Assembly: GCA_002710785.1 (NCBI GenBank)
Contig: PAMC01000016.1
Span: 13,435 to 77,434, forward strand
Source: a bacterium
GTDB taxonomy: Bacteria > Patescibacteriota > Minisyncoccia > Phycocordibacterales > UBA918
Length of the DNA: 64,000 bases
Direction of reading: 5' to 3'
The notes beneath the pieces are model-generated. The model was given only the letters and a program-made list of their open reading frames with translations. It was not told where the DNA came from and ran no database searches. Made by a program: the position numbers and the translations under genes. The first letter of the stretch is position 1, and the number at the start of each line of letters is the position of its first letter. Shown here in pieces: positions 15,917 through 37,936 of the stretch.

Positions 15917-17560
15917 CTACTCTTCGGCCAGGTACACAACTATGGTCGTGGTGCTCGTAGGAACCGCCGAGAGTAGTGCACCTGGTAGCGCCTCGCTCAG
16001 TGCGATCGCTTCGTCTTGAAGATCAGTTGGAAAGAGAACGACACTGTTGGTGCGAATGGTCGCGTCGGTTGCCAGTGTGGTAATCGGGAACTGATCAATG
16101 AGGGCAGCTGCTCGTTCTCCAGCCAAGCCAGGCTGTGGGCTGGCGTTGATAAAGGTGACTGAGTAACTAGCATCGTGCTGAAGACGATCGGCCGACATGC
16201 CTGGCTGTTGGAAGAAGGCGATCTCTTCAGAGTTATACGTCACTGCTTGAGCATCTAAGCCAATGGTTGCCTGATACGCATGATTGCTGGTTGCGGCCTG
16301 TGAGCGGACAAAGAGCCAGAGTATGAGCAGTAGTACGACTGCGCCAGCCACCGCAACAAGATGCGCGCGGGGTGACATAAGCCGCCAGAGGGCACGAGCC
16401 TCGCGATACAAGAGCGCGCAAACTTCTCGCGCGTGCGAAAACGTGATTTGTATACGCTGCAGCCAATCACTTTTAGTTGGTGTATCAGCTGTAGTTTGTT
16501 TGAGGTCAAGATCTGACGACTGGCGGATTAGTTCGTTTTTTACTTGGGTTGGTTGTGACTCAGAGAGACTCTTTAATGAAGTAACACCCGCCTGACGAAG
16601 CAGCCGACGGATGTACCACCGACTAACAGTGGCAATGAAGAGTATGATGCCGAGGACAATCGCAATAACGGTAAGTAGTGGCTTCACGGGAATAACCCAG
16701 AAGCTTGTCTTGGCTGAAACAAACTGTTTGGCTTCACTACCGTAGGTAAGTGTTGCCGCAGCAGTGTAACGGCCAATATCGAACAAAGAGGGTTCGCGTT
16801 GCCAAGAGAAGTCGTAGGTCCGAATCATGCCTGGGAGCGCGTTACCAAAACTAGTATTGATATTAACCGGGATGGAGCCGCGTTCAGCGCCCCACATGTT
16901 ACGAATAAGAATTTCACCAACTGGCCGAACATGCACGTTACCCGTGTTCTCGAACCGTAGCGCCAGCTCGGTACGCGGTTCGGTACTGTACGAGTTGCTG
17001 GCGGTGAAGCTACGTAAGAGCGCAGACTCGTACACATCGCCAGCGACACGTACAAACAGTAAACTGCTAATAACCTGTGCGGTACTAAAGCCTGAACTGG
17101 TTTGAGCATCAGGCGGCGCAGTGCTGATCTGAAGTGCGGCAAAATGACTACCTGGTGCAGCAACCTCAGGCGCAGTGACGACAAAGGCAACTTGCCGACT
17201 GGTATTTGGTGGGATGGTAATACTTGGCTCCGGTATATCAATCCAGTTGGCGAGCACTACCTCGTCTTCCGGCACTTGACTCTTCGGGATAATATTACTC
17301 TGACCACGCTCACCCACTGACTCAAAATGGGCTGGTTGCGTGTAAATTGTCAGCGGAAAATCATTGGTGTTTATAACTTTTACGCTACTTTGCCAAATTT
17401 CACCTGGCGCCAGTCCGAGCTCAATGAGAGTTGGGGCTACAGTGATACTCACCCCCTCAGCCTGCTGAGCGGAAACTGTGGCCGGCAAACACGCGAAAGT
17501 GTACGCGAGGGTGGCAACTATGAACAGGCGGAGCTGGTTACGTTTTGAGATTAATGTCAT
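15917..17560 (-). CDS. DUF916/DUF3324-like cell-surface protein, C-terminal TM anchor
   Basis: Signal peptide MTLISKRNQLRLFIVATLAYTFACLPATVSA; beta-rich domain VSITVAPTLIELGLAPGEIWQSSVKVINTNDFPLTIYTQP; C-terminal TM LLTVIAIVLGIILFIATV then a Lys/Arg tail and a cytoplasmic extension; start set to Met35 (17560), a 23-nt out-of-frame overlap with the upstream paralog. Confidence 0.55.
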   Translation of the reverse strand: MTLISKRNQLRLFIVATLAYTFACLPATVSAQQAEGVSITVAPTLIELGLAPGEIWQSSVKVINTNDFPLTIYTQPAHFESVGERGQSNIIPKSQVPEDEVVLANWIDIPEPSITIPPNTSRQVAFVVTAPEVAAPGSHFAALQISTAPPDAQTSSGFSTAQVISSLLFVRVAGDVYESALLRSFTASNSYSTEPRTELALRFENTGNVHVRPVGEILIRNMWGAERGSIPVNINTSFGNALPGMIRTYDFSWQREPSLFDIGRYTAAATLTYGSEAKQFVSAKTSFWVIPVKPLLTVIAIVLGIILFIATVSRWYIRRLLRQAGVTSLKSLSESQPTQVKNELIRQSSDLDLKQTTADTPTKSDWLQRIQITFSHAREVCALLYREARALWRLMSPRAHLVAVAGAVVLLLILWLFVRSQAATSNHAYQATIGLDAQAVTYNSEEIAFFQQPGMSADRLQHDASYSVTFINASPQPGLAGERAAALIDQFPITTLATDATIRTNSVVLFPTDLQDEAIALSEALPGALLSAVPTSTTTIVVYLAEE

Positions 17561-18533
17561 GATCTTCTGCTGGTGATTGCCCCTCGTACACATGCAGCGG
17601 CAAGGCAGCGGCCCCATCTGTATGTGCAATCGGTGACCGCAGCCGACGTGCAAGGTACACATAAAACAATACAGAGAGGATAACGAGCGCCACTACAAAA
17701 GCCAATAGCACCGGCCACGGCAGGTACCAAAATGAATCGCTCATTGAAACAGCTGCCAACTGCTGGTTTTGGTAATCGACGCGCACAGCTGCAGCGTACG
17801 CGCCAAGCCACGGGAGTGCCGGAGTGGCTGTCGCAACACTAAGTACCTCGCCTGGTGCCAATGGTGCGCCGCCAGGGTTGATCGGTACCGCAGCCACTTC
17901 AGCACCTCGTTTGTTAGTGATTATAATCTCTCCTTGTGGCACCACTGTTTTTGTCCCAGGATTACTAATCCGGTAGGCAATCGCAGGCTGTGTATCGGCC
18001 AAGACGAGATTCGTAATATCTAGCGACACCGCACCGTCAGTCTGAATATCTTTCTCCGGAACGGTTAGCCGTAGAACTACTCCGGGCGCCACTCCCCGCT
18101 CAACCGCTTGCTGTGCAGTCGGTCGGTCGATACCTTGCCCGAACCCAAGCAGCGCCCGGTACACACCAGACTCAACATCACGCGGAATCGCCAATCGCAC
18201 TGAAACAATAACCTCCTCCTCAGGTAATAAACGCTGTCCCGCCTGGGTCATGGTGAGCCACTTGGCGACAACTGTCTCGCCCGACGGGAGAATTTGCTCT
18301 TGGGTGCTGGTACCGTCGCGCACTTCGAGTAGGCCATGAACCGACGGGTACACTGTGATTCGGTACGGGTAGGTATTTCTCACTGTTATCTCGGCGCTCA
18401 CAATGTCACCTGGCTGAACGGTTTCCTCGATGGCACGTGGAGAAACGTGGTGAATAGTCTGAGCCGACACAGTGTTACCGCTGGCAAAGACAGCGATTGT
18501 GAGTAACATGATTATTGTCGGTAGGGCGCGCAT
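17538..18533 (-). CDS. DUF916/DUF3324-like cell-surface protein, C-terminal TM anchor
   Basis: Signal peptide; HHVSPRAIEETVQPGDIVSAEITVRNTYPYRITVYPSV; second beta domain AIAYRISNPGTKTVVPQGEIIITNKRG; TM LLAFVVALVILSVLFYVYLARRLRS; paralog of 15917..17560 and 33683..34606. Confidence 0.55.
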   Translation of the reverse strand: MRALPTIIMLLTIAVFASGNTVSAQTIHHVSPRAIEETVQPGDIVSAEITVRNTYPYRITVYPSVHGLLEVRDGTSTQEQILPSGETVVAKWLTMTQAGQRLLPEEEVIVSVRLAIPRDVESGVYRALLGFGQGIDRPTAQQAVERGVAPGVVLRLTVPEKDIQTDGAVSLDITNLVLADTQPAIAYRISNPGTKTVVPQGEIIITNKRGAEVAAVPINPGGAPLAPGEVLSVATATPALPWLGAYAAAVRVDYQNQQLAAVSMSDSFWYLPWPVLLAFVVALVILSVLFYVYLARRLRSPIAHTDGAAALPLHVYEGQSPAEDHDINLKT

Positions 18534-18535
18534 AA

Positions 18536-21500
18536 TTAGAATTCTGGTGTCACCAAGTACACAATATCGCTTGAGTAGTCGCCCGGCGGCTGTGTGCCAG
18601 TAACCACTATTCTGTATATTATATCCTCACTCTCTGTTGCTGGCACGGCACTGTACATGATTTCTTCTGGTGTAGTACTGGCCGCAGCGTAGGTATCGTC
18701 AAGGGCAAAGCGGCTGGTATTGCCTGAAAGTGTATCGTCACCAGCGTGGTACCCGAAACAGCTCGTGAGCCCAGAGCAACCAGCGCTCCATCCGCTTGGT
18801 GCGCTATTGGTGCCGGCAATGTCAGCAATGGTATCAGAATCGCTATTCTGCAGTTGTTGGCGCGTGTAGAGTTGAGTCCGATAGCCGCTGACAGCATTAG
18901 TATCGATTGATAAGCGTTGTCCAGCAATAGCATCACTGTCAGTTACCAGCGAACCGAATGGAATGGTCGTGGCAGTAGTGCTCGCAGTCGTCACCACACC
19001 TTCGGTTGAGGTGCCGGCTGGTAAACCGTTAACCGTAAAAGCGAGACTGCCCGACTCACCTACCAGCGATGGGTAGGTGGCTCCACTATCAAGTGGTACG
19101 ACGTCTCCGTTTGCTACGTCGTACACCCGGAAGTACCACACCTGACCGTAGTACCCAGAAATATTTTGGTACTGAATCGTAAACTCAAATTCAGTGGCGC
19201 TAAGCGCGGTATGCGTGTACCCAGTTAGCGTTAGATCCGATTCGTTGTGAGTACCACAGCCGACGCCCACACCAGCGTTACAGATATCGGTATTTGTTAA
19301 CACCTTTTCATCGATGATCGCATTATCGACGCCGGCGCCATCGTCGTAGCACCAGACATCGCTACCACCACAACTACCACTGTTTACCACATCGTTAACG
19401 GTGGCGAAGCCAGCTGAGTCAGAGTACTGGAGGCGGAACCGGGCGTTGGCTTGTTCGAGATTGTTAAGCTCGTCGACAATAACGCGCAGTTTAACGGTAT
19501 TACCTTTTTGAACTTCGACAGGTGCAACATTCTCAGCTGCTAGGTCGGTGCTCGGTGTGAGAGAGGTTTCATCGTCGTACCAACGCCAATCTGACTGCAC
19601 AGGTGAGTACCCTTCAGTGCGCAGCGAAGGATAGGTGAGGTATTCGGCGAGCTGCGTGCCATCATCTTGTACAACCCGGAAGCAGTAGTCGGAGCGTTGT
19701 GTTGCGCCATTGTGCTGAATCACCCAATCGTACTCAACATCTTCGTCTGCATTTACACTGTACGGGTTGGCAGTTGCTGAGCCACCCTCAACATACCGAC
19801 CAGACCGGTCGGAGACCGCCAAAAGTGTTTGGCCACCGGTTGGCGGGTTGGTACCAATAGCTGCATTGTCTGCAACCGCACCGTTATCAAAACCGCGCCA
19901 GATCGATCCGCTCCCGGGGGCTCCAACATCGTTCCAGCTGCTGATTGCAGAGCAGGTGGTTTCTTGTAGACCGTACTGCAACTTAAGTGACTGGAGCGTT
20001 GCAGGTAGCGTGCCGTTTGTGATGAGAAGTGAGGTGCGTAAGCGAATTACGTCACCGTCACCAACCGGTGTGTCGAGTACCGTGATCGGACTATTTTCAC
20101 CAATGCTGCCGGCGCCAGGGGGCCAGGCGTCGGTGGGGGTAAGGGCGTTTGTGTTGTCGTACCAGCGGTAGTCGTTTTGGCGGATTGAGACGTCTGCGGC
20201 CGGCCACTCCACAACCATGGCACGATACGAAAGGGTGCCTTGCGTGTCTGAACGCCAGATCTCAAAGGTGGTGGAGCTCGTAAGATACAAGCCAGCCATA
20301 ATTTCCGGGAAGTTGTTGGTCGCGCGATCAATAGTCGTGTTACCGAAAATCGCCGCATTATTGATGTCGTTTACACCAACCGCATCAAACGACACTGAAG
20401 TAGTGGCTGGTGCGGTACCCCCGGTAAAGAGTCCGCTCGCTGGAAAAACGGTCATCTCCCCTGCTCCGTTTTGAATATTTTCTATAACCCAGACTACCGC
20501 AGTATGGGTTTGGGCCATATCTGCGCCCGAGTCGAGCGAAAATGAGACCACTCCCATACTCGAGAGCCACGCCTGTACACCGTAGCTCGCCTGTTGTGAG
20601 GTAAACGTGTGCCGTTTTTGTGTCTCCAGAAAAGCTTTGGTGACAGCACTGACCGGCGTGATCGACTCTGTTTCGGTGACGCCGGCGCTTGAGAATTCAT
20701 GTTCCACTCGCTGCACCTTCCAGTTGCCACCTAAAAACTCCACAACAGCGTAGCTAAAGTCCGCACTGGTGTTGGTGGCACTTCTCGTAAGCACTACCTG
20801 ATTGGTGGAGCTCGACCAAGCGGCGGTTGCACGGTTGTTGCTAAAATTACCACGCGAAGCGTTAGTCATACGAGCTCCGGTAATAAACACAGCAATATCG
20901 CCATCGTCGGTAATTGGATTTATGGCTGAGCTTGTGGCGTACGTTTGTCCCGAGCTCATGCTAATAGTTCCTACGTCTCGCACAACCATTTCGTTGTCGG
21001 TACCAGGATCACCAATAAACTCAATGATTTCCCAGGCCACAAACGTGTTATTCACAGAGTCGGTATCACGCGTAATAGTAAAACTAGTTGGTAAGTTACT
21101 GGATGTGATGTACGCGGAAACATCGTCTGGATTTTGGTTACCGGCGCCGGTGTCACGACCAGCACCTGTGTGGTGGAAGTTGGTAATACGAACAAACGCC
21201 ACACTCGTTGAGGCGGGGGCGTCGTAGTCAACGCCGGCCGTAAGTGTAAGACTCGAACCACTGATGACGTTCGTGCCACGCTGCGTCTTGTAGTCACGGT
21301 TAGTTTTGGTGCTAATTTCTGGATACACATCGTACGCCACGAGAGGAGTGCCGTTCTCAACGACCCGGAAACAGAAATCAGTCTCAAATGGCGTATTGGC
21401 GGTAGTTGTGATTGAGAACTCAAAATCAACGTAATTTGTGCTCGAGAGAGTAGTGGTTGGTGTGCTAGCATCAGTTTCGGCTATACCTCCGTTACTGGTT

Positions 21501-24500
21501 AAGAAGTCTGCTTCTTCGTCACTTACACCACCATCAGCCACTGGAATATCAGTTGTATCACTCCCGTCAGTAAGAAACGTGGAGTCGTACATATCCCACG
21601 AGTCATTAGCAAAGGCATCGACGTTGGTCCAGCTGGCAACCACATCACATGTTGTCTCTCTGATGCCGTACTGCAACGTGTACTGGACAGGAACAGAAGA
21701 TGTGCCACCCTCGTTAGAGAGCCCGAGACGCAACCGGTACGGCTCGTTCTTGTCGATGTCGAGCACTGCCGTGTCCTCCGTCCCGCTGGTGGCTGAGCTA
21801 GCGGTTGTTTCAGTGCCGTTATCATTACGCCAGTGGTAATGCACCTGGGTAACAATTGCCCCTGAGACACTGGTGGTGCTCGCAATAGTAACCGCCGTAC
21901 TTGGCGCCACCGATGCGCCGCCCGAGACGGTAATTTGTGTATTCGGGTTAGTAATTTCAAGCTCAATTGTGTCCCCGTTTTGGGCAGTGTTCTCGACGTC
22001 GTACACAACATACACACATAGCGCACTGGTGGTCGAAATACCAACACTGTCAGAAAACGATGCGTTACCGTTGGCGGCGTCAAAGTTGGCGACGGTACTC
22101 CCAAATTGGGACTCTGTACCAGCGTACGATTCGCTGGCGCAGTTGTACGGTGCTGAGGTGTCGCTGTCGTAATACAGCTCAATATTAGCAACATCTGTGT
22201 CGGCATCAATGGTACCCATCTCAGCGATGGTAATGGCCGTGACATTGCGTGCGTCACTAGCCTCGGTGATAACAAACGCGCCACCGCCGTAGATGTCGAC
22301 ATCGCCAATTTCTGCATTCGCCACCTGGTTGCCAACACTGCTCACGTTAACATCAGCGGCAATGGACGCAGTTGGGTATTCAATATACTGACCGAGTACG
22401 GCACCCCCCTCACTAAGCCTAAAGCAGTAGGTGCTTCCCTGTGAAGCTGTGGTCGACGCAACGAGTGAAAACTCGTACTCCACAAATTCAGTACTGGTAA
22501 GCGTAATGCTGTTGGTTTGTGATGTGGTGTCGAGCAAGCCACCGTTTGGCGAGGCAAACGAAGAGTTTGGGTTGCTTACACCCCCACTGCTCGTCGCAAT
22601 GTCGGTGCTGTCGGTGCCGTTGGTGATAAAACTGGAATTGTGCATGTTCCACGCATCGTCTGCGTCGTCGACCCCCGTCCAGGTGCCCACATCTCCACAG
22701 GTCGGGTTAGCTACTCCAAATTCGAGCTCAAAGTTTGTACTTAGCGTTGACGTTGAGCCTTCGTTGGAAAGGGCGATACGCAGACGTCGAGGTTGATTGC
22801 GTGGTAAATCAACCAGGCCGGTATTTTCCACACCAGCGGTAACAGAGGTAGCACCACTCTCGTTACCGTTGTCATTGCGCCAATGGTACCCCGTTTGTTG
22901 AAGATCGGGCCGCACCACGGTGGTGGCACCTGAAAGAGCGATGGCAGTGTTAGGTTTTGGGGTGATGCCGCCGGTTACCGAGACGTCTGTACTCGAATTG
23001 CTAATTTCTACATCAATCGTTTGTCCGTCGTCAGCCGATCCGAGGACGTCAAGCAGTACGTACACACAGAGCGTACTTGAGGTGGCAACCGAAACCGAAT
23101 CCACGAACGTTGCAATACCATTAGCGCCGTTAAAACCGTTGGTGTCAGTCGCGCCGTACTGCAACTCTGAACCGTCATAGCTCTCACTCGAGCAGTCGTA
23201 GGGAGCTGACGTATCTAATTCGTAGAGCAGGCGAATATTGGCAATGTCGTTAGCACCATCAACCGAACCGTCTTCAGTGATCGTAATACCCGTAACCGAG
23301 CGACTGCTGTCGAACTCTGTAAACACGAAGGTGCCGCCGAGGTAGTTGCTCGTAGTGCTTCCTCGCACCTCGGAAATTTGCGAACCAATACTCGACACCG
23401 TCAGTGGTGGCGTCGGGTCGAGCATGGTTTCACCACGAATATCAAGCGGTGTGAGCGCATGCCAGCTCACGTAGAGCCGTTGGTCGGAGCGGTAATTAGT
23501 GTCGACGCCGTAGAAGTCGTCAGTGGCGACATTAAGTGGACCATTGTCGATACTCCAGCTGCCCATGGCACTGGTTGAACTCGCCCAGTACACGTTAGCG
23601 GAGGTGCTGCTGCCAATTGTGCCTCGCGCACCGTACGCAACGTAGACATCATCGGTGTTAGCGTCAACCGCCATGGCCAAATCGGTAATACCTCGACTAT
23701 CGTTGGTGAGGATGTCAGCCGTTTTACTCCAGCTGCCACCACTGTACTTGGCGGTACGAATGTCGTGGTCGGCGGCCGTAAAATTATTGTTGTCTGCAGT
23801 ATACGCCAGGTGAACATCGCCAGTGTCCGGGTCGACCACTGCAGTCATGCCTACTTCGTACGTCGCGCTCTCAACCGCCGACGCATCAATCGCGGTCCAC
23901 GATGCGTCCCAACTCGTGTTGTCCCACACCTTCGAGCGAACATCATTAGCGTTACGGTCGCGGTCAATGACCATGATGTCGCCACCTAACAGTGGCACAA
24001 GAATCTGCATGTCGCCTGTAACTACATCAAGCGGGTTAGTACCAGTTTCTGACCACGATGTCGACAGGTCACAGTTGCTGCTACACTCAACAATAAAACC
24101 ATCCGTGTTATCGGTTAAGCCTGTGTAAATGGTGCCGTCTGTCCCCTTCGTAAGTGCGGGTTTTGCTGCGCCGTGGCTAATAGTTGGTGTCTGGCCAGTG
24201 GTGGCATCGGTACCTGAGAGGCCGACAAGCAAAGTGTCGTTGGTGGTATCGAGGCGGTTGTAGCGGATATCTTCTCGCGCACTGTTTTGGTGCATGGTGA
24301 CAATGTGGATGTAGTCACCAGTGTCCCCCGGCGTCCACTGATCGTACCAGACTGAGATCGAGCCACAGTCGCTAAAGTTATTAAACTGCGTCGCACCGCC
24401 CCAAGTAGCACCGCCATCAGTGGTTTTTGAGTAGTAACAGGTACCGTTGGTGATGGTATAAAACCGGTAGCCAGTTTGATCATCGGTAAAGACAGTAGAA

Positions 24501-24697
24501 AAACCAGATTTTTGGTGCCGAGTCGGTTGGTTATCTGCGTTGTTGGCAATCACAGCTTCGGCAGCAATTATAGGCCGAAAGGAGAAGAAAAGCAGCCCAA
24601 ACAGAAGTACCATCAAGCACGAAAACCAAATCCGTCTCTCAGTCTGAGTCCATATGCAACAAAACTCACGGACGTTGCCGAATATCGTTAAATTCAC
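18536..24697 (-). CDS. giant secreted protein (2053 aa): N-terminal Asp-box (BNR) beta-propeller, four copies of an uncharacterised about 200-aa module, conserved C-terminal domain
   Basis: Signal anchor; Asp-box SKTTDGGATWGG and S-x-SWS repeats; modules starting YHWRNDNG (x2), YRWYDN, DWRWYDDE, each with R-L-R, L-Q-Y-G/S, C-F-R and Y-P motifs; C-terminus ...YSSDIVYLVTPEF. Confidence 0.8.
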   Translation of the reverse strand: MNLTIFGNVREFCCIWTQTERRIWFSCLMVLLFGLLFFSFRPIIAAEAVIANNADNQPTRHQKSGFSTVFTDDQTGYRFYTITNGTCYYSKTTDGGATWGGATQFNNFSDCGSISVWYDQWTPGDTGDYIHIVTMHQNSAREDIRYNRLDTTNDTLLVGLSGTDATTGQTPTISHGAAKPALTKGTDGTIYTGLTDNTDGFIVECSSNCDLSTSWSETGTNPLDVVTGDMQILVPLLGGDIMVIDRDRNANDVRSKVWDNTSWDASWTAIDASAVESATYEVGMTAVVDPDTGDVHLAYTADNNNFTAADHDIRTAKYSGGSWSKTADILTNDSRGITDLAMAVDANTDDVYVAYGARGTIGSSTSANVYWASSTSAMGSWSIDNGPLNVATDDFYGVDTNYRSDQRLYVSWHALTPLDIRGETMLDPTPPLTVSSIGSQISEVRGSTTSNYLGGTFVFTEFDSSRSVTGITITEDGSVDGANDIANIRLLYELDTSAPYDCSSESYDGSELQYGATDTNGFNGANGIATFVDSVSVATSSTLCVYVLLDVLGSADDGQTIDVEISNSSTDVSVTGGITPKPNTAIALSGATTVVRPDLQQTGYHWRNDNGNESGATSVTAGVENTGLVDLPRNQPRRLRIALSNEGSTSTLSTNFELEFGVANPTCGDVGTWTGVDDADDAWNMHNSSFITNGTDSTDIATSSGGVSNPNSSFASPNGGLLDTTSQTNSITLTSTEFVEYEFSLVASTTASQGSTYCFRLSEGGAVLGQYIEYPTASIAADVNVSSVGNQVANAEIGDVDIYGGGAFVITEASDARNVTAITIAEMGTIDADTDVANIELYYDSDTSAPYNCASESYAGTESQFGSTVANFDAANGNASFSDSVGISTTSALCVYVVYDVENTAQNGDTIELEITNPNTQITVSGGASVAPSTAVTIASTTSVSGAIVTQVHYHWRNDNGTETTASSATSGTEDTAVLDIDKNEPYRLRLGLSNEGGTSSVPVQYTLQYGIRETTCDVVASWTNVDAFANDSWDMYDSTFLTDGSDTTDIPVADGGVSDEEADFLTSNGGIAETDASTPTTTLSSTNYVDFEFSITTTANTPFETDFCFRVVENGTPLVAYDVYPEISTKTNRDYKTQRGTNVISGSSLTLTAGVDYDAPASTSVAFVRITNFHHTGAGRDTGAGNQNPDDVSAYITSSNLPTSFTITRDTDSVNNTFVAWEIIEFIGDPGTDNEMVVRDVGTISMSSGQTYATSSAINPITDDGDIAVFITGARMTNASRGNFSNNRATAAWSSSTNQVVLTRSATNTSADFSYAVVEFLGGNWKVQRVEHEFSSAGVTETESITPVSAVTKAFLETQKRHTFTSQQASYGVQAWLSSMGVVSFSLDSGADMAQTHTAVVWVIENIQNGAGEMTVFPASGLFTGGTAPATTSVSFDAVGVNDINNAAIFGNTTIDRATNNFPEIMAGLYLTSSTTFEIWRSDTQGTLSYRAMVVEWPAADVSIRQNDYRWYDNTNALTPTDAWPPGAGSIGENSPITVLDTPVGDGDVIRLRTSLLITNGTLPATLQSLKLQYGLQETTCSAISSWNDVGAPGSGSIWRGFDNGAVADNAAIGTNPPTGGQTLLAVSDRSGRYVEGGSATANPYSVNADEDVEYDWVIQHNGATQRSDYCFRVVQDDGTQLAEYLTYPSLRTEGYSPVQSDWRWYDDETSLTPSTDLAAENVAPVEVQKGNTVKLRVIVDELNNLEQANARFRLQYSDSAGFATVNDVVNSGSCGGSDVWCYDDGAGVDNAIIDEKVLTNTDICNAGVGVGCGTHNESDLTLTGYTHTALSATEFEFTIQYQNISGYYGQVWYFRVYDVANGDVVPLDSGATYPSLVGESGSLAFTVNGLPAGTSTEGVVTTASTTATTIPFGSLVTDSDAIAGQRLSIDTNAVSGYRTQLYTRQQLQNSDSDTIADIAGTNSAPSGWSAGCSGLTSCFGYHAGDDTLSGNTSRFALDDTYAAASTTPEEIMYSAVPATESEDIIYRIVVTGTQPPGDYSSDIVYLVTPEF

Positions 24698-24715: not shown

Positions 24716-26296
24716 TTACTGCTCAGTACTGGTGGCTGCCGGTGGAATAACCAGGTCAAATTCGGGGTCTGGGAGCACGTCTGGAGCCGGTGACTTCTCG
24801 GGTACGGTAGAGGTTGCCAAATCGAGGATGAGCGGGTTATCGGAAGCTTCGGCTGGCGTACTGGTTGCTGCTGGCGCAGGCTCAGTTTGCGGAGCACTAC
24901 TCGTGGCAGTAGTGGCACTGGAACCAGTGCCAGACATCAGTGGCTCCGACACAATCTCATCTTCTTCAAGAGTAGGTTTGTACTGCACAAGCGCTCGGAC
25001 CTCGTTTGTTGGATCACTCGAAGGTAGCTCATCAGGGAGTTCTGCTGGCAAAGCCTCGATTGGTACTAACTCTTGGGTAATCGGGTCAAACCCGCGAATG
25101 ACTCGGTCCCCTTCTGGGGTAAGGCCTTCGTACACGAGTAGCATGCGAGCATTTTGCACTGATGCACCCACTGATGCGTCGTCAATTCGAGACTCTTCTT
25201 CGTTTTTAATATCGTACACAACAACTTCCTGGTTACCGTCGTACATTCGCTTCCAGACCACGAAACCTTCACTGACTGACGGTGCAACGTCCGGCATTGT
25301 GTTGTCGGTCAGCTGCCGCACTGATTCGCCGTCGTGCAACATAATTTCCCAGCTCTCGCTTCCCCACTGCTGCCACACAATAATGTCTCCCTGTCTAGTC
25401 GGTTCCATGTTGTTACTGCGTCCGGCAGTGAGTTGGGTTTCTGTTTCCTCATCAAAGTCGTAAACCATGATCTGGTACCGTCCAGAAATGAGCGTATGCC
25501 AGACGAGGGTGTCAGATTGCGCGTCGTAATACGGGGCAGCATCATCCCGTTTATTGTTGGTGATTTGGTACGTTTTTCCCTCCATCACCGCAAAAATCTC
25601 GCGATCCCCATCGCCATCAAGCGCTACATAGAAGCTGTCGGCTGGCGGCGGCTCTGGAGCACTTGATCCACAGTAGTACGAGCCGTCAGCTACCCGTACG
25701 CAGTCATCTTTAGAAAATTGATAGTAGTTTTGATTGGTGGCACCAGTGTGGCTAAGCGGGACAACTGGTGACGTAGTTGCGGCTACATCAGAAGCTGCCT
25801 CCGCTGCAGAGTCAGCCAGTAAGTTGTCCTCATCTGCGCTATCAGTGACGCTTTCCTCGTCGAGGACCGATGTGCTGGTTGCCTGCACAGGTGGCGTCGA
25901 TGAGGCCGAGGAGGTGTCATCAAGGTCCGGGTCGGGAACCACTTCATCACTATCCGGAGGGGCAGCTGGTGTACCTGATGGCTGATCTTCCTCGATTTCA
26001 GGTTCGGGCTGCACTACTTCGCTCGCTATTTCTTCTGGTGGTGCAATGTCTTCCGCCGATATACTAGACCCGGTCTCCACTCCGCCGCCCGTATCAGCTG
26101 GTTGCGTTTCCTCCACTTCTGCTACCGTGTCAGTCTCAATTTCTGTCGGTACCTCGTTGGCAAAAACCAAACTAACCGGCTGCGAGAACATGACGAGCAA
26201 CACCCACGTCGAAAACCACCGCACAAGACGGTTACCAAATACAAACCGGTAGAGCCACACCGACTGAATGCTATTGGTACTTATGGGCTTTGACAT
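24716..26296 (-). CDS. secreted beta-propeller-repeat protein with acidic low-complexity N- and C-terminal regions
   Basis: Signal anchor; repeats (GDIIVWQQWGSESWEIMLHDGESVRQLTDN; GFVVWKRMYDGNQEVVVYDIKNEEESRIDD; TLVWHTLISGRYQIMVYDFDEETETQLTAG) resembling TolB/PD40-type blades; long E/D/P/T-rich tracts. Confidence 0.55.
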   Translation of the reverse strand: MSKPISTNSIQSVWLYRFVFGNRLVRWFSTWVLLVMFSQPVSLVFANEVPTEIETDTVAEVEETQPADTGGGVETGSSISAEDIAPPEEIASEVVQPEPEIEEDQPSGTPAAPPDSDEVVPDPDLDDTSSASSTPPVQATSTSVLDEESVTDSADEDNLLADSAAEAASDVAATTSPVVPLSHTGATNQNYYQFSKDDCVRVADGSYYCGSSAPEPPPADSFYVALDGDGDREIFAVMEGKTYQITNNKRDDAAPYYDAQSDTLVWHTLISGRYQIMVYDFDEETETQLTAGRSNNMEPTRQGDIIVWQQWGSESWEIMLHDGESVRQLTDNTMPDVAPSVSEGFVVWKRMYDGNQEVVVYDIKNEEESRIDDASVGASVQNARMLLVYEGLTPEGDRVIRGFDPITQELVPIEALPAELPDELPSSDPTNEVRALVQYKPTLEEDEIVSEPLMSGTGSSATTATSSAPQTEPAPAATSTPAEASDNPLILDLATSTVPEKSPAPDVLPDPEFDLVIPPAATSTEQ

Positions 26297-26521: not shown

Positions 26522-27250
26522 TTAGTTAAAGAAGGAGTCGGCCAAAATAATAGCAAAATCAGTGAAATTCATGCGCCTGTCCTGGTTAAAATCGTACAGC
26601 CACTGCCTGTTGCGCCAGGCGCGCATAAATTCGTTAACATCGGCCAAACTGACGTTACCGTCGCCATCGATATCCGTAATAAACGAAATGGCCACATCAC
26701 CACTCAGGATGCCGTCTTCACTCACTCCAACCACCAAAATTGGTGTATCGGCAATCTCATCCACTTCACTACCGTTCCCATCACCAGCCAAAAGCGTCGT
26801 CTCACTGACGCTAAATTCAGCGCGTCCACCTGTATTGGCTTTGAAGTTAATTCGCGCAACTTGATGTTCACCCACAAACCCCTTGCGGAAGGTGCCGCCA
26901 CGCAGAATCACCTGCGACCCCTCAACGTACGGATCTTGTGTCCAGAGTGAGATTACTGACTCACCAGTGTCTATGCCGGTTACCTCAACCTGATTGCTGG
27001 GAAACGAGACGGCAATATCCACTGCATTTACCGAGCGGTGTGCACCAGCATAGACGTAGACTGAAAAAGAATCCCCGGCAGCAACACTGCGCTCTGGTGC
27101 CTCCAGCCTAATGTAAGAAGTTGTGTCAGTTAGGAGGACTGTGGCAACAAGCGAAAGGGCTGCGAGTGTGGCAAACGAAAACGTGTGTCGAATGGTACGC
27201 ACTCGGGCCTGTTTACGAAAACGGTGGAGTAAGCGACGGAGAAACATCAT
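26522..27250 (-). CDS. cohesin-like domain + dockerin protein
   Basis: N-terminal signal; cohesin-like block SFSVYVYAGAHRSVNAVDIAVSFPSNQVEVTGIDTGESVISLW...HQVARINFKANTGGRAEFSVSETTLLAGDGNGSEV; C-terminal dockerin F-hand repeats DIDGDGNVSLADVNEFMRAW and DFNQDRRMNFTDFAIILA. Confidence 0.6.
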   Translation of the reverse strand: MMFLRRLLHRFRKQARVRTIRHTFSFATLAALSLVATVLLTDTTSYIRLEAPERSVAAGDSFSVYVYAGAHRSVNAVDIAVSFPSNQVEVTGIDTGESVISLWTQDPYVEGSQVILRGGTFRKGFVGEHQVARINFKANTGGRAEFSVSETTLLAGDGNGSEVDEIADTPILVVGVSEDGILSGDVAISFITDIDGDGNVSLADVNEFMRAWRNRQWLYDFNQDRRMNFTDFAIILADSFFN

Positions 27251-27900
27251 ATGGCATATAACGACTGACGGATGTCGGCGATGGTAGTATTCAGTTCCGC
27301 TACTCGGTTTGAGACCTGCTGCGCTCTGACGAGCTTAGCTTCTAGCACATCCGGATCAGGTACCCCGGTTTGCAAAATAACGATAATTTCACCTTGAATG
27401 TCGACTTGCTCGCTCAGCAAGTCCCCCCGCTCCCGTTCAAAATCAACTAACGACTGCCAGGTGAGCACCGGATACTCACTGACAGCAGCCGGCTCAAGTG
27501 CCGTGAGGAGCGATACGTACTCGTTGTACACCTCAAACTCCCGCTCAAGGCGTGCCACTATAACTGCCTTACGTTCTGCGAAAAACCCTCCGCAAGCGTC
27601 GAATAAACGACTGATGTCGTCGAGCTCAGTAGCGGTAAGATTGGCTAAATTGTTCAAAAGTTGCTCAAACTGCCGTCTGCTGTCGGGTGAGCAGTCGCGA
27701 ATAATGACTTCTGCGACAGCATCAGCTCTATTTTGGGCTGTCAATTCGGCGAGGGTAGTGAGTCGTTGTTCTTGTTTGGCAATTGCGCGTTCCAGGGTCA
27801 AAACTGTCGTACGCTGTGACTGCTCAATGTAGAGAGAAGCAAACGCAAAACAAAGTGCCAAACCAACACCAAGCGTGATGACAATATGATGATTTCGCAT
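27247..27900 (-). CDS. hypothetical N-terminally anchored coiled-coil protein
   Basis: 217 aa; TM IVITLGVGLALCFAFASLYI then heptad-like Q/E/L/R-rich sequence; ATGA-type overlap with the downstream gene. Confidence 0.45.
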   Translation of the reverse strand: MRNHHIVITLGVGLALCFAFASLYIEQSQRTTVLTLERAIAKQEQRLTTLAELTAQNRADAVAEVIIRDCSPDSRRQFEQLLNNLANLTATELDDISRLFDACGGFFAERKAVIVARLEREFEVYNEYVSLLTALEPAAVSEYPVLTWQSLVDFERERGDLLSEQVDIQGEIIVILQTGVPDPDVLEAKLVRAQQVSNRVAELNTTIADIRQSLYAI

Positions 27901-27906
27901 AGTGTA

Positions 27907-29667
27907 TTAGCTAACTATATCATCAACCTCGGAAATTTCCTTGCGGATTGTTTGCTCAGCTGCGTCGATGTGTGCGAGTGTATCATCAACAAGTTGTTGT
28001 TCAGCTTTAGTGAGTTTTTTAGTTTTGCGCGAGCCGCGGAGCGTCTGACTTTCGGCAGTAACTGTCTCTCGCAGGGTAGTAAACTGGCGTTCGAGCACAG
28101 TCAATGCCTCTCCCGTTTCGGCAACCACAACCCGTCTGATTCGGCGGATGCGGGCTCGGCCATAGAGAAGTAGCAAAACGAGGAGAAGTGTCAGTGCCAC
28201 GAGTGGTACGAGAACCGACATGATGCTTACCGCCCACTGACCAAAGGCGATGTAGCCTGGTTGAGCCACTAAGAAGCGTACCGTCTCACTCGTTGCGCTC
28301 TGTGAACCATGCGAATCAATCGCATAGGCGGAGAGTTCGTACACCCCTTCCGACAGACGTCCGTCCGGCACAATTCTGAACGACCCGTCCTCCTCAGCAC
28401 CCAAAACGTACTCGAGCGGCACATCCCCCTGGTCACCGCGACCAACTGGTGCAATCGTCGCGTATACAGTTGCCCCTGGCCGCGTAGAGCCAAAGAATAC
28501 CGGCACGACACTGGCTCCCACCTCTGCGGGATACTCGGTCCAAACCGGAGCAGCAAACGCCTCGATGGTAAAGCTAATAGTGGCAACCCGGCTATTACCT
28601 GCCGCATCGAAAGCTTCAATTACAAAACTCTGCTGTCCAGGTTCAAGCTCAGTCAGGGTGAGTGTGCTGCTGCCGGTTTCGTCAACAAATTCGTACGGTT
28701 CTCCACCGTTGTGCTGGATACGATAACGCGTTACTGGGGAGGTCGCGTCACTACTACTAAAGCGAAGTTCTTGCGTAGGGCTAGAAACATCGTAGGCGTC
28801 GCTACGAGTGATAGAAAACTCGGTTGGCGCCTCAGTATCAACCGCGAGACGGTAGTGCGCCACTCGACCCCACCCTTCAGTGTTGCGGAACTGGAGGTGG
28901 AAGTACTGCACACCCTCATCTAGCTCACTCAGCGTAATCGAGTTAATCGGCGGCTCGTATACTTTCGTTGGGATGGTGCCGCTATTAGTATCGAGTAGCG
29001 TGCGAACTGCCGTCACATCACCCGGAATTGACCACGACAGTTTTGCTTCAGTGGCTTGTGACCATCCATCTGCCTGGTGGGTCTCGCTCGAAATATTTGG
29101 TGTACCAGGAGTATTCGCTGGAGCGATGTACTCAATGGTCTCTGGCTCGGGCTGCACGTCGGCTGCGGCAATGGTGTACGTACCGCCATTAAGACTCTGT
29201 ACTACATTTGTACCCCGTCCATCGGCTGCTAAAACTGACCCGTTGCTGAAGGTAACCCGTGCTGGGCCTGCACCTTTAGAACGCCAGGTAATCGTGAGTA
29301 CCGTACCAGCACTCCCGGTGTAGCCAGCTGGAGAGCCGCCGCCAAAATTAATAGTACCGGCTGCGTTTGAGTACGATGGCTCGACGGCCCACAGTGAGAA
29401 GGTGTTCCCTTTGCTGATGCCGAGCACTGAGAGCTGACTCGGGTTGAAACTAAGTGTAGCTTCGGCGGCGTTAATGGCAGTTCCGCGTGTATTTACGACT
29501 ACCCGCGTCGTAAATGTCTGTCCTGCGGTGTACACACCGGTGCTCGGTGAGAGCGAAAGAGTTGCGGCTGACACGGTAGTAGCGCCGAGTAGGAAGAGAG
29601 CACACGCAAATACAAAGCTCAGTAGGTAGGTATGGGCAGTGGCGCTAGTTCGTATCATTGTCTTCAA
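27907..29667 (-). CDS. cohesin-like domain surface protein with Ig/FN3-like domains, TM anchor and cytoplasmic coiled-coil tail
   Basis: Signal peptide; cohesin-like block ATLSLSPSTGVYTAGQTFTTRVVVNTRGTAINAAEATLSFNPSQLSVLGISKGNTFSLWAVEP...ARVTFSNGSVLAADGRG; TM AVSIMSVLVPLVALTLLLVLLLLYG; about 85-aa charged coiled-coil C-terminus. Confidence 0.6.
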   Translation of the reverse strand: MKTMIRTSATAHTYLLSFVFACALFLLGATTVSAATLSLSPSTGVYTAGQTFTTRVVVNTRGTAINAAEATLSFNPSQLSVLGISKGNTFSLWAVEPSYSNAAGTINFGGGSPAGYTGSAGTVLTITWRSKGAGPARVTFSNGSVLAADGRGTNVVQSLNGGTYTIAAADVQPEPETIEYIAPANTPGTPNISSETHQADGWSQATEAKLSWSIPGDVTAVRTLLDTNSGTIPTKVYEPPINSITLSELDEGVQYFHLQFRNTEGWGRVAHYRLAVDTEAPTEFSITRSDAYDVSSPTQELRFSSSDATSPVTRYRIQHNGGEPYEFVDETGSSTLTLTELEPGQQSFVIEAFDAAGNSRVATISFTIEAFAAPVWTEYPAEVGASVVPVFFGSTRPGATVYATIAPVGRGDQGDVPLEYVLGAEEDGSFRIVPDGRLSEGVYELSAYAIDSHGSQSATSETVRFLVAQPGYIAFGQWAVSIMSVLVPLVALTLLLVLLLLYGRARIRRIRRVVVAETGEALTVLERQFTTLRETVTAESQTLRGSRKTKKLTKAEQQLVDDTLAHIDAAEQTIRKEISEVDDIVS

Positions 29668-30781
29668 TTACGTTACCGTCTTCATCAACTTCGACCTCCA
29701 CCCACTCTTCGACATACTCATACTCGTCTTCTTCGGCAGCGGCGGAGGCTTTGGCCGCCTTACGTTCGCGACGACGTGCGAGCAGATTCGGCACCAGTTT
29801 GTGACCAACCAGAGCGCCGAGTAGCACCAAGAGCAACGCGCCGACGCCAATAATGATGTACTCAAGCAGTGTCGTCATAGAAATGCCGCGGAGTGGCTCT
29901 TCTGGTACCAGCGTGGCAATGTACTCGTTACCTGCCTTATCTACGGCTTTTACACGAATTGTGCTGTTGAGTGACTGATCAGACAGTACGTACGGGCTAC
30001 GAACGCGTTTCCACGGCGCGTCAACTGCACCCCACTCGAAGAGGCCAGCTTCTTCAAACGGCTCTTCAATAACTTCGTAGTAAGCTATGCCGGTTTGTTT
30101 GTCGGTAGTGTTAAAGATGATGTAGTACTTGTTGTCAAACACTTTGGTGTCGCGCTGTAGGGTAATACTAAACTCTTCTGGGATACGAGTATCGCCCTGC
30201 ACGAGCTCTACCCAATCGTTGCGCACCACTTGACCTGGCCGGTCACCAACCACAAGTGTTGCTGTGTTCGTAATGAGATCCGCTAAGCTACCTCGTCCGT
30301 CATTGAGGTACACTGTTGTTTGATCAGAAAAACGAATCGTACTGGTTGGACTCTGATCGCCGAATCCAACCCGGAGACCGGGTACTTGGAACACAATCTT
30401 GAGCACCTCATTGGTAAGGCGTGGATCTCCCTCAATGCGGCCGCAGTATCCGTTGGGGATACCGCCGGCAAAGGTAATGCGGTTGTTCTCGCGATCTATG
30501 GTGGGCTCTTCTACCCACAGCGGCAAAATTGACTGGCCACGGCTAATGTCAACCGGTTGCACATTTGGGTCGTACTCGATGACCGCGTCAACGACGTTAA
30601 TACACTCCCCGGGTGAAGGATTAACCCGTACCGCCATCACAATGGTGTCGCCCGGGTTAATCGTGCCTGTATTTGGATCTAAGTAGAGAACTGCAGCTGC
30701 AGCGGTCCCTGGCAACACCAACTGACTAGAGAGACCGAGTGTCCCCACCACCATAAAGAGCTGCCGCATAAAATGCATCAT
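29645..30781 (-). CDS. cohesin-like domain surface protein with C-terminal TM anchor and acidic tail
   Basis: Signal peptide; cohesin-like block TIVMAVRVNPSPGECINVVDAVIEYDPNVQPVDISRGQSILPLWVEEP...STIRFSDQTTVYLNDGRG; TM IIIGVGALLLVLLGALVG; tail ARRRERKAAKASAAAEEDEYEYVEEWVEVEVDEDG. Confidence 0.6.
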   Translation of the reverse strand: MMHFMRQLFMVVGTLGLSSQLVLPGTAAAAVLYLDPNTGTINPGDTIVMAVRVNPSPGECINVVDAVIEYDPNVQPVDISRGQSILPLWVEEPTIDRENNRITFAGGIPNGYCGRIEGDPRLTNEVLKIVFQVPGLRVGFGDQSPTSTIRFSDQTTVYLNDGRGSLADLITNTATLVVGDRPGQVVRNDWVELVQGDTRIPEEFSITLQRDTKVFDNKYYIIFNTTDKQTGIAYYEVIEEPFEEAGLFEWGAVDAPWKRVRSPYVLSDQSLNSTIRVKAVDKAGNEYIATLVPEEPLRGISMTTLLEYIIIGVGALLLVLLGALVGHKLVPNLLARRRERKAAKASAAAEEDEYEYVEEWVEVEVDEDGNVIEDNDTN

Positions 30782-33682: not shown

Positions 33683-34606
33683 CTAGCTACGGCGACGATA
33701 CACCAGTAGACCGATAATGATTAAGACGGTGAGAATCGGCAAAATAATTGAGACCTTGTGCGGCAGTGACAAGCCAGCAAAACCATACCCGGCCGTCTGC
33801 AACGTGCCGTACGGCAGGATATTTAGCGTCAGCTCACCCTCCTGTTTAATGTCATCTTGATTATAAATGGAGTACCGTGCCAGGTACGAACCAGCTGGCA
33901 AGCGCGTTGGTATCTCGGCCACCACGTCTTCAGTTGCAAATGGCTGCACTCTGACAATTCGGTTGCGGTGGTGAGTCTCCTCCAGAAGCGTCTGTCCGGT
34001 TGAATCGTAGATCTTGAAAACCACATCGCTCGGCGCTACGTCAACGTTGCCGGTATTCTCGATACGCATGCCAAAGTTAATCTTAGCTGGGAAGTAGAGC
34101 CAGCCAACTTTGTGTCCCTCGTTAAAGTCGGGCAATTCGATCTTGCGTACACGAAAATCAAATATCTCTCTATCAATGATCGTTAGGTCGATGTCGACTT
34201 GTGCACCTAAAGAAATGTTAACGGCGCCAGCAGTTTCAGAGCCCGGTGGTGGTGCAGTCTTAATGCGGATCTTGCCAGAGTAACGTCGGAATTCTGCGTC
34301 GTCAGGGACCGTCACCCGAACGGTCACCGGCACTTTTTTGGCGCCAACTGGCATAGCAATGAGATCACCCTCGAGCACCTCTACCCAGTCAGCAATCGTG
34401 GGGGCATCAACCGTGATGCGGGCGTTGAGTGGGGTTGATGGGTCGCTGCGGACCATGAGAATCTGCTGTTCGTATACTGAGTTACGCGTCAAGCTCGTAT
34501 TACGCACGTACGGTGGTGTAATACCAAAACCAGCGTAGGAAAGATTGACCCCCACCACGTAGGCAATAAAGAACACCGAGAAAAATACGTAGAGCTTCTT
34601 TATCAT
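33683..34606 (-). CDS. DUF916/DUF3324-like cell-surface protein, C-terminal TM anchor
   Basis: Signal peptide MIKKLYVFFSVFFIAYVVGVNLSYA (start set to Met17); GFGITPPYVRNTSLTRNSVYEQQILMVRSDPSTPLNARITVD; second beta domain; TM ILPILTVLIIIGLLVYRRRS. Confidence 0.55.
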   Translation of the reverse strand: MIKKLYVFFSVFFIAYVVGVNLSYAGFGITPPYVRNTSLTRNSVYEQQILMVRSDPSTPLNARITVDAPTIADWVEVLEGDLIAMPVGAKKVPVTVRVTVPDDAEFRRYSGKIRIKTAPPPGSETAGAVNISLGAQVDIDLTIIDREIFDFRVRKIELPDFNEGHKVGWLYFPAKINFGMRIENTGNVDVAPSDVVFKIYDSTGQTLLEETHHRNRIVRVQPFATEDVVAEIPTRLPAGSYLARYSIYNQDDIKQEGELTLNILPYGTLQTAGYGFAGLSLPHKVSIILPILTVLIIIGLLVYRRRS

Positions 34607-37910: not shown

Positions 37911-37936
37911 ACTACGTACTCAGTATAACAACGGGG

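Follow-up and report, generated by a model that had tools for sequence, protein, structure and literature searches.

The locus described here raises the question of what three membrane-anchored proteins, each with two beta-sandwich domains and here called A, B and C, do in a CPR bacterium, and which of the secreted proteins encoded around them are their partners. CPR bacteria are ultra-small and are believed to live in attachment to host cells; how they build surface appendages is, to our knowledge, largely unknown. The original prediction took the three proteins for DUF916/DUF3324-like anchors partnered with giant secreted proteins. It had placed their genes correctly; they are three minus-strand open reading frames (orfs) and the only members of the family within the window, by which we mean the whole 64-kb stretch of DNA that was analysed. 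The features of the locus are listed in Table 1.

Table 1. Features of the locus and their positions in the window.
Feature	Position	Strand	Size or part	Basis and remarks
Gene A	15917..17560	(-)	547 aa	ATG start at 17560; paralog of B
B/A overlap	17538..17560	(-)	23 nt	out of frame; sequence
Gene B	17538..18533	(-)	331 aa	
Giant secreted protein	18536..24697	(-)	2,053 aa	directly upstream of B
C-terminal domain of the giant, Pam-pilin-C type	18536..19006	(-)	residues 1898-2053	NF058581; combined HMM match
TolB-like beta-propeller protein	24716..26296	(-)	526 aa	NCBIfam; upstream of the 2,053-aa giant
Cohesin proteins (two membrane-anchored, one with dockerin) and a 217-aa membrane protein	26522..30781	(-)		Pfam, TM scan, synteny
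Pilin-like protein	30897..32042	(-)	381 aa	NF058581, E=5e-7
Secreted protein (Cys-rich DUF4215 repeat, Big_6, dockerin)	32535..33668	(-)	377 aa	Pfam, NCBIfam; conserved cluster member
Gene C	33683..34606	(-)	307 aa	third paralog, distant
Stem-loop, then T-run	34653..34683	(-)	13 bp	between the 631-aa gene and C
Secreted protein	34712..36607	(-)	631 aa	directly upstream of C; second C-terminal domain type
MacB-type ABC transporter	36702..39262	(-)	ATPase 441 aa, permease 402 aa	synteny
Giant, head of the conserved cluster	40800..63956	(-)	7,718 aa	C-terminal domain of the 631-aa type

A and B are recognizably similar in pairwise comparison (28% identity across about 290 aa; BLASTP E=6e-17). BLASTP detects no similarity of C to either; profile comparison with hhalign matches the C family to the A/B family at 99% probability (E=4.6e-18, 226 columns), and an A/B HMM matches C at E=7e-13. 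On the evidence of these alignments the three are true paralogs, and their resemblance is not chance. Clustered at 50% identity, the family as a whole falls into more than 11,000 groups. Gene C is highly conserved among Paceibacteria-type CPR genomes, with 1,271 homologues, the best 120 of which are 61-82% identical to it. Two family alignments were made, and the search for related loci was run with that of the C family (A3), that of the A/B family (A2) being too diverse for the purpose.

The 23-nt out-of-frame overlap reported between the first two genes is present in the sequence and is also kept in relatives: it measures 23 or 29 nt in four of five related loci (L081, L083, L085 and L086), and in the fifth (L087) it is 4 nt (ATGA) instead. 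The ATG of A falls within the CAT-GAC (His-Asp) codons of B, which suggests that translation of B and A is coupled.

A, B and C are type-I membrane proteins, each with a signal peptide and a transmembrane (TM) helix located by hydropathy scan, and outside the cytoplasm each has a pair of Ig-like beta-sandwiches with the PapD/MSP/WxLIP fold. B was modelled with AlphaFold2 (mean pLDDT 82), and the model has a signal helix, the two beta-sandwich domains and a C-terminal helix; its N-domain adopts the PapD/WxLIP fold with a long hairpin at residues 59-82, and its second domain is Ig-like. The predicted succession of signal peptide, two beta domains and TM helix thus holds throughout, but a C-terminal helix with a basic tail, which had been assigned to all three, is found only in C (helix 285-303, tail RRRS). 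In B the helix (275-293) is followed by a 38-residue cytoplasmic tail ending HDINLKT, with a conserved HDINLK motif. In A it is internal (295-313), with 234 further residues beyond it that form a cytoplasmic segment of about 85 residues, a second TM helix (400-418) and an extracytoplasmic LytR_C-like domain (467-544; Pfam PF13399, E=0.0048). The match to LytR_C recurs in A orthologs, which in L081, L083 and L085 are 533-560 aa long and lie downstream of B-like genes. The cytoplasmic motif [IVL][DN]L[KR] is conserved: B-family proteins end in it, and A keeps it just past its first TM helix as SDLDLK, the counterpart of the motif in the tail of B.

Giant partners had been proposed for all three proteins. 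Large secreted partners are indeed present, and the stop codon of the 2,053-aa gene lies 2 nt ahead of the start of B, but the immediate neighbours of C encode 631-, 377- and 381-aa proteins and no giant. The 2,053-aa protein has an N-terminal signal or anchor, BNR-like and repeated modules, and a C-terminal domain, here called type 1, which ends VTPEF; it carries neither a C-terminal TM helix nor a sortase signal, and so has no other anchor. The 381-aa protein has a signal peptide, a beta-sandwich N-domain, a linker (VTATVDTTFTF, residues 193-203) and a C-domain ending ATPIF, and its AlphaFold2 model (pLDDT 83.8) shows two domains joined by a low-confidence linker (193-196).

Both C-terminal domains resemble that of the pilins of the Pam pilus, described in 2026, mainly from Saccharimonadia and Microgenomatia, as a CPR system of pilins PamA and PamB, chaperones PamC and PamD, and the further components PamT, PamE and PamR (Troman et al., bioRxiv 10.64898/2026.03.03.709456). 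NCBIfam holds two Pam entries, NF058581 (CPR_Pam_pilin_C, curated cut-off 55 bits) and NF058579. The giant matches NF058581 at E=7e-5 over profile positions 2-148 of 148, with 22.9 bits against the cut-off of 55; the 381-aa protein matches it from position 2 or 3 to 148 of 148 with 29.9 to 32.2 bits against the same cut-off. Of 40 relatives of the 381-aa protein 23 match the profile too, and all of the matches lie between 22.9 and 36.3 bits, below the curated 55-bit threshold. An HMM made from the 381-aa family alone matches the C-termini of the giants in L086, L087 and L089 (E=2e-18 to 3e-24). The TPxF end is present in 120 of 120 homologues of the 381-aa protein, and the orthologs of the giant (1,760-2,055 aa), which precede B-like genes in every locus checked, end in [TIV]PxF. 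By these profile matches the giant and the 381-aa protein have a common C-terminal domain ending [T/I]PxF. The most conserved segments of the 381-aa family (300-310, 193-203, 249-259 and 371-381) are in the linker and the C-domain, which are also the most conserved parts of Pam pilins (bioRxiv 10.64898/2026.03.03.709456); the C-domain of the giant is not preceded by the conserved linker strand. A fold search with the 381-aa model against a PDB set without Pam structures returned only generic Ig-like adhesins and pilins, and PDB profile and sequence searches with the 381-aa protein gave nothing meaningful.

The association between the two sets of genes extends beyond this genome. The expected co-occurrence with TPxF-ending proteins is borne out: a member of the A/B/C family stands beside a partner-type protein ending [T/I]PxF in every related locus examined. 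The order giant, B-like gene, A-like gene is found in seven of the seven B-family loci with flanking DNA, and a gene of the 381-aa type lies downstream of C in 55 of 56 loci. Four loci (L087, L088, L089 and L090) are rearranged, compact operons that do without the rest of the cluster, and in these the type-1 C-domain neighbours persist; L089 has the giant, B, A, a pilin-like gene and a C-like gene in a single run, and in L088 a pair of pilin-like genes precedes three members of the family.

We consider it probable that A, B and C serve the [T/I]PxF partners as donor-strand chaperones anchored in the membrane, as anchors, or as both, and form a Pam-like, usher-less system of Paceibacteria-type CPR bacteria. 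The partners would be secreted proteins whose C-terminal domain is of the Pam-pilin type and terminates in [T/I]PxF-COOH. Following export by Sec, the incomplete C-terminal beta-sandwich of the partner would be filled by the long N-domain hairpin of A, B or C, which would keep the partner folded and tethered at the membrane. Having a conserved inter-domain linker strand, the 381-aa protein could polymerise by strand exchange, giving a thin fibre; the giant would only accept a strand, and would be either the adhesin at the tip of that fibre or one that B and/or A hold permanently. The coupled proteins B and A probably act as a pair, the LytR_C-like domain of A may link the complex to the cell wall, and the conserved HDINLK-type cytoplasmic tail would point to an intracellular partner. 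That strands are complemented, that a fibre forms and that A, B and C have separate roles is what we infer from these features. Against this reading stand the sub-threshold scores of all the NF058581 matches, the generic outcome of the fold search with the 381-aa model, and the different C-terminal domain of the 631-aa protein encoded directly upstream of C.

PamC (WP_260763277.1) and PamD (WP_260763284.1) are described as FimC/PapD-like proteins that carry a TM helix at the C-terminus, with a proposed role as usher-less chaperones of the Pam pilins, and PamR (WP_260763282.1) as a pair of beta domains followed by a C-terminal TM helix, its defining feature being an extra N-terminal donor strand (bioRxiv 10.64898/2026.03.03.709456). 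Going by this published description, PamC and PamD, with which A, B and C share a signal peptide, two PapD-like beta domains and a TM helix, are a closer match than is WxLIP. The two systems further agree in a CPR host, in the lack of an usher, in having three TM-anchored two-domain proteins each, and in partners that join a beta-sandwich N-domain through a conserved linker to a C-domain matching the Pam pilin C profile end to end. They differ in several respects. All profile matches here are under the curated cut-offs, and when 78 A/B-family relatives were scanned with NCBIfam, none matched a Pam chaperone model and the matches obtained were weak ones to FxLYD, TafE and fimbrial-chaperone models. 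The lineage is of Paceibacteria type, not Saccharimonadia or Microgenomatia; the pilin-type domain also occurs on a protein some 2,000 aa long; B and A show the translational coupling and the conserved cytoplasmic motif, and A the extra TM helix and LytR_C-like domain; and Pam genes adjoin ATP synthase genes, whereas those described here belong to a cluster of 48 kb that also encodes cohesin/dockerin proteins, a MacB-type transporter and the 7,718-aa protein.

The logic is also that of chaperone-usher pili, in which a chaperone (PapD or FimC) completes an incomplete Ig fold, the C-terminus of the subunits is invariant, and the tip adhesin (FimH or PapG) has an adhesive N-terminal part joined to a C-terminal pilin domain that lacks a donor strand. 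Here, by contrast, there is no outer membrane, no usher-like gene among the cluster genes scanned with Pfam and NCBIfam, and the chaperone is TM-anchored, the subunits have two domains and the adhesin is a giant; PapD_N and PapD_C (PF00345 and PF02753) find no match in A, B, C or 78 A/B relatives.

A possible, though doubtful, alternative is that the three proteins are not transient chaperones but permanent membrane anchors or terminators akin to PamR, which hold the end of a fibre or the giant adhesin, A binding the wall through LytR_C. The architecture that PamR shares with them, the want of any other anchor in the giant, the LytR_C-like domain of A and the conserved cytoplasmic tail in B and A all speak for this. 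However, chaperone-usher chaperones score at least as high as RbmA in the fold comparison, and three paralogs against two type-1 partners suggest divided roles rather than three anchors.

That these are bona fide WxLIP/CscA proteins, with a DUF916 domain binding peptidoglycan and WxL and a DUF3324 domain binding host surfaces in a Csc-type complex as in lactobacilli and enterococci, we regard as unlikely. The CscA-like architecture that had been recognized is real: signal peptide, two Ig-like domains in the same order, size (307-331 aa) and TM anchor are as in the WxLIP proteins of the CscA-D loci of lactobacilli, enterococci and Listeria, where one of the partners is likewise a 'large' protein with its interaction domain at the C-terminus, and the closest solved structure is a WxLIP (PDB 9i1y). 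Membership of DUF916 and DUF3324 has to be given up, as no match reaches threshold. A matches PF06030 (WxLIP_PGBD/DUF916) over profile positions 21-120 of 121 at E=0.0014, with 19.0 bits against a gathering score of 27.3; B and C do not match it. Among 78 diverse A/B-family relatives 21 match at E<=0.01 (best 7e-6), none of them reaching the gathering score, and 0 of 36 C-family members match. PF11797 (DUF3324/HBD) finds nothing in A, B and C at E<=1, in the 78 A/B-family relatives at E<=0.01, or in the 36 C-family relatives at E<=1. The conserved N-terminal motif of WxLIP, NQIDKxxxYFDLK (PMC10599100), does not occur in A, B or C, the mature N-termini of which are QTIHHVSPRAIEE (B), QQAEGVSITVAPTLIE (A) and GFGITPPYVRNTSL (C). 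The partners also argue against this assignment: PF13731 (WxL) has no match at E<=10 in four partner C-termini, nor any at E<=1 when 40 relatives of the 381-aa protein are scanned, and the partners instead end [T/I]PxF, resemble the Pam pilin C profile and, in the 381-aa protein, have a pilin-like linker suggesting polymerisation. The host, moreover, is a CPR bacterium and not a Firmicute. PDB profile and sequence searches with the A/B family gave nothing meaningful. A WxL-like motif seen by eye in the partner C-domain (HWGL ... TLxYVATPxF) has no WxL profile match and is a lead only, and a metalloprotein paper naming DUF916 (PMC12537917) has no bearing on the locus.

It is quite unlikely that the three are membrane-anchored surface proteins of a generic Ig-like kind (CARDB/NEW3/fn3-like) with an adhesive or structural role of their own, co-located with the giants only through a common surface regulon, for although A/B-family members do give weak matches to fn3_5, CARDB, NPCBM_assoc, DUF11 and FxLYD, and adjacency alone could reflect conservation of the 48-kb cluster, which is syntenic as a whole, the type-1 neighbours survive in the four compact operons, the giant and B are tightly spaced, B and A appear to be translationally coupled, and the very high conservation of C would be unusual in an exposed adhesin.

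The reading of A, B and C as donor-strand chaperones and/or anchors bears on both known systems. In an AlphaFold2 prediction, the WxLIP hairpin completes the WxL beta-sandwich via a parallel strand (PMC10599100), and as modelled this completion is of the same form as chaperone-type donor-strand complementation. We tentatively suggest that the WxL/WxLIP complexes found in Firmicutes and the Pam pili found in CPR bacteria might be two branches of one ancient usher-less donor-strand system, in which the chaperone is anchored in the membrane of single-membrane bacteria. Paceibacteria-type CPR bacteria would have extended it in two ways, by mounting giant adhesins of about 2,000 residues as acceptor-only tip or anchored subunits, and by a cytoplasmic link through the [IVL][DN]L[KR] tail on a coupled chaperone pair. 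The locus suggests that in Paceibacteria-type genomes a Pam-related system belongs to the deeply conserved core, that the same C-terminal 'pilin' domain is used for mounting a giant adhesin, and that A, B and C are distantly related to the Gram-positive WxLIP/DUF916 proteins, the mechanism of which is still unsettled. If this is right, donor-strand complementation from a membrane-anchored chaperone would provide one frame for the Pam and WxL systems, with concrete, named partners, and a very large family of uncharacterised proteins would gain an annotation.

The remainder of the 48-kb cluster is also well conserved. The 631-aa gene is upstream of C in 70 of 72 loci, the 7,718-aa giant is present in 50 of the 52 with enough flank, and the MacB-type ABC transporter is syntenic in 51 of 52; synteny is likewise kept for the 377-aa gene, which sits between C and the 381-aa gene, and the cohesin proteins and the 217-aa membrane protein are all conserved. 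The position of the 526-aa gene upstream of the giant is kept in L081-L085 and L089. The 631-aa and 7,718-aa proteins have a second type of C-terminal domain in common (hhalign 99.9%, E=7e-33), which is not claimed as a partner domain because it has no profile similarity to the type-1, Pam-like domain. No Rfam family is matched within the window, and a scan for promoters and terminators gave counts at chance level, with the exception of one strong hairpin, the stem-loop ahead of C, which from its sequence may be a terminator or an attenuator.

Genes A, B and C, which encode three related membrane-anchored proteins, lie, like all genes of the region, on the minus strand. Only 2 nt separate the stop of the open reading frame of the 2,053-aa giant from the ATG of B, and the predicted 23-nt out-of-frame overlap of B with A is borne out, the CAT-GAC (His-Asp) codons of B supplying the ATG of A. 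The start of A at 17560 was set by its signal peptide and homolog alignment, the longest reading frame beginning at 17662. A hydropathy scan gives each protein a signal peptide: B then has a transmembrane (TM) helix at 275-293 and a 38-residue tail, C a helix at 285-303 and the tail RRRS, and A a helix at 295-313, a cytoplasmic segment of ~85 residues, a second helix at 400-418 and a C-terminal domain. This last domain weakly matches LytR_C (PF13399, E=0.005), more clearly so in A orthologs. The C-terminal TM helix with a basic tail, originally described for all three, thus strictly fits C alone, given the internal helix and extra domain of A and the 38-residue tail of B.

Coordinates of features in the window; all genes are on the minus strand
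Feature	Position	Length (aa)	Remarks
Surface-protein super-cluster	15917-63956		minus strand
Gene A	15917-17560	547
Gene B	17538-18533	331
Tail of B	17538-17650
2,053-aa giant	18536-24697	2,053	N-terminal end BNR-like (SxDxGxTW; read by eye)
Cohesin + dockerin protein	26522-27250
Cohesin protein	27907-29667		C-terminal TM anchor
Cohesin protein	29645-30781		C-terminal TM anchor
381-aa protein	30897-32042	381	C-terminal domain matches NF058581
Cys-rich 377-aa protein	32535-33668	377	dockerin
Gene C	33683-34606	307	other possible ATG at 34626
Stem-loop	34653-34683		minus strand; GC-rich, 13 bp, then T-run; between 631-aa gene and C
Second-type C-domain, 631-aa protein	34712-35314		YWGI..P...G.N.F.A
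MacB-type ABC transporter	36702-39262		ATPase 441 aa, including C-terminal extension of ~200 residues
7,718-aa giant	40800-63956	7,718
Second-type C-domain, 7,718-aa giant	40800-41462		YWGI..P...G.N.F.A

The three genes are paralogs. Over ~290 residues A and B share 28% identity (E=6e-17). C has no BLASTP match; the C-family and A/B-family profiles align with 99% probability (E=4.6e-18, 226 columns across both domains), and the A/B HMM finds C at E=7e-13. No fourth member was found in the window. Searched against a library of 1.84 billion proteins, a B-like profile recovers 11,545 cluster representatives at E<=1e-3, of which 5,153 reach E<=1e-10; the A/B family is large and unannotated. The C subfamily (1,271 matches) is unusually conserved, its best 120 matches of 1,271 having 61-82% identity, and the names of its homologs include Paceibacterota, Pacebacteria, Kaiserbacteria and Nomurabacteria, which assigns the window to a Paceibacteria-type CPR bacterium; identical proteins are recorded under 'bacterium CL655', a Tara MAG. 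AlphaFold2 models B (mean pLDDT 82.4) as a pair of beta-sandwich domains with a long hairpin at 59-82 and a helix at the C-terminal end; PDB searches by sequence alone found nothing. A, B and C have the PapD/WxLIP fold with a TM anchor.

The original prediction called these proteins DUF916/DUF3324-like, with a CscA-like architecture, and partnered them with giant secreted proteins. A aligns with PF06030 (WxLIP_PGBD, formerly DUF916) over positions 21-120 of 121 at 19.0 bits against a threshold of 27.3 (E=0.0014); neither B nor C matches this Pfam profile, and PF11797 (DUF3324) has no match in A, B, C, 78 diverse relatives or 36 C-family members. Among the 78 relatives, 21 match PF06030 at E<=0.01 (best 7e-6) and four match the ASH (PapD-like) domain. 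By the criterion that came with the original prediction, a profile match, membership does not hold at the Pfam level; the N-domain is likely a remote relative of DUF916. No partner protein matches WxL (PF13731). The observation was largely correct, the CscA/WxLIP reading standing for architecture and remote ancestry and falling for family membership and the nature of the partners.

The partners share a Pam-pilin-type C-terminal domain and a conserved adjacency to the A/B/C family. This domain, of ~160 residues, is common to the 2,053-aa giant and the 381-aa protein. Aligned to NCBIfam NF058581 (CPR_Pam_pilin_C, Pam pilus system pilin subunit), both cover the profile from position 2 or 3 to the last, 148, and stay under the 55-bit cut-off, with 22.9 bits for the giant and 29.9-32.2 for the 381-aa protein. 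Of 40 relatives of the 381-aa protein, 23 match NF058581, and an HMM built from the 381-aa family alone detects giants at other loci by their C-termini (E=2e-18 to 3e-24). All proteins with this domain in the fetched loci (62/62) end in [T/I]PxF-COOH, as do 120/120 database homologs of the 381-aa protein. The model of the latter (pLDDT 83.8) shows a sandwich at the N-terminus and the C-domain, joined by a linker of low confidence; conservation in its family is highest at 300-310, in the linker at 193-203 (VTATVDTTFTF), at 249-259 and at the C-terminus. Read from its sequence, the giant has no equivalent linker ahead of its C-domain. The 381-aa protein has 890 matches, the best 120 of 890 at 51-83% identity; such conservation of it and of C is unusual for exposed surface proteins and fits a core structural organelle better than a variable adhesin. 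The 631-aa protein shares with the 7,718-aa giant a second type of C-terminal domain (hhalign 99.9%, E=7e-33), which has no profile match and no detectable relation to the Pam-like type. Both giants contain repeated modules of ~300 residues in which a Y(H/R)WRNDNG motif recurs, as read by eye.

The context of C was read from 80 GTDB species loci, with counts made only among those with enough flank. Gene order is nearly invariant: the 7,718-aa-type giant (present in 50/52), an fn3 protein, the MacB-type ATPase and permease (51/52), the 631-aa type (upstream of C in 70/72), C, the 377-aa type, the 381-aa type (downstream of C in 55/56), two membrane-anchored cohesin proteins, a 217-aa protein, the cohesin-dockerin protein, a TolB-like propeller and the 2,053-aa-type giant. 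B and A, downstream of this giant, close a single co-directional super-cluster, the order of which is almost unchanged across ~50 GTDB species of Patescibacteria.

Five relatives of B with 28-35% identity (contexts L081/L082, L083/L084, L085, L086 and L087) all follow a large [TIV]PxF-ending protein by 1-11 nt and precede an A-like paralog. In four of the five the two genes overlap as here, the ATG of the latter lying inside the His-Asp codons, and the fifth has an ATGA overlap; B and A are translationally coupled. More distant family members lie in L089, L088 and L090. In locus L089 a single run holds genes for a propeller and a 1,760-aa giant, then B-like, A-like, 391-aa pilin-like and C-like genes, and the C-domain of the giant matches NF058581 (E=5e-9) and has a weak match to NF058579 PamT (E=0.011). 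In L088 three family members come after two 354-aa pilin-like proteins (NF058581, E=2e-7 and 3e-6), and the short contig L090 repeats this kind of adjacency. The proposed co-occurrence with TPxF-ending proteins is conserved across the loci fetched. A T2SSE/PilB-type ATPase gene directly follows the three family members in L088 (10494-11537), which may be a tie to type IV pilus machinery or a coincidence.

The structure of thin filaments from Ca. Mycosynbacter amalyticus, a CPR bacterium, has been solved. Its pilins, PamA and PamB, each combine a beta-sandwich at the N-terminus with a linker strand that is donated and a C-domain that is Ig-like but truncated; PamC and PamD, FimC/PapD-like with a C-terminal TM helix, are proposed as membrane-anchored chaperones driving usher-less donor-strand exchange; PamT is an acceptor-only tip subunit and PamR an RbmA-like, TM-anchored terminator (bioRxiv 10.64898/2026.03.03.709456). 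The reading that the evidence supports best is that of an usher-less, Pam-like donor-strand system in a CPR bacterium of Paceibacteria type, a variant of this recently described kind, distinguished by a pilin-type domain on a giant adhesin, a chaperone-like pair that is coupled and bears a cytoplasmic tail motif, and its place in a conserved surface super-cluster of 48 kb. The N-domain hairpin would complete the partner C-domain, the 381-aa protein would polymerize via its linker, and the giant, likened to FimH, PapG and PamT, would be an acceptor-only tip or anchored subunit; B and A would form a working pair, LytR_C tying A to the wall. Within this Pam-like system A, B and C may be transient chaperones, or they may be permanent anchors, either of the PamR kind or of the WxLIP kind proposed for Firmicutes.

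[quoted passage not shown] The Pam preprint makes no mention of WxL or DUF916 (bioRxiv 10.64898/2026.03.03.709456), and no link between the two systems was found in the literature searched. That WxL/WxLIP complexes and Pam pili are one unified system is possible, and is the most interesting point raised here.

The tail of B in close relatives reads LPLHVYxGxSxxEDHDINLK, and 86 of 149 representatives of the B family have [IVL][DN]L[KR] in the last 14 residues. In A, SDLDLK is retained beyond the first TM helix (residues 349-354), and C has no tail motif. The motif is partly dual-coded with the ribosome-binding site and ATG of A, which explains part of its conservation but not its presence in distant members, and it suggests an intracellular binding partner.

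Between 15 and 35 kb the stem-loop upstream of C is the sole strong terminator-like site; it may act as an attenuator or mark a point where expression differs. The MacB-type transporter might serve export or assembly of surface proteins. The cohesin and dockerin modules (26522-30781 and 32535-33668) suggest a cellulosome-like docking network on the CPR cell surface.
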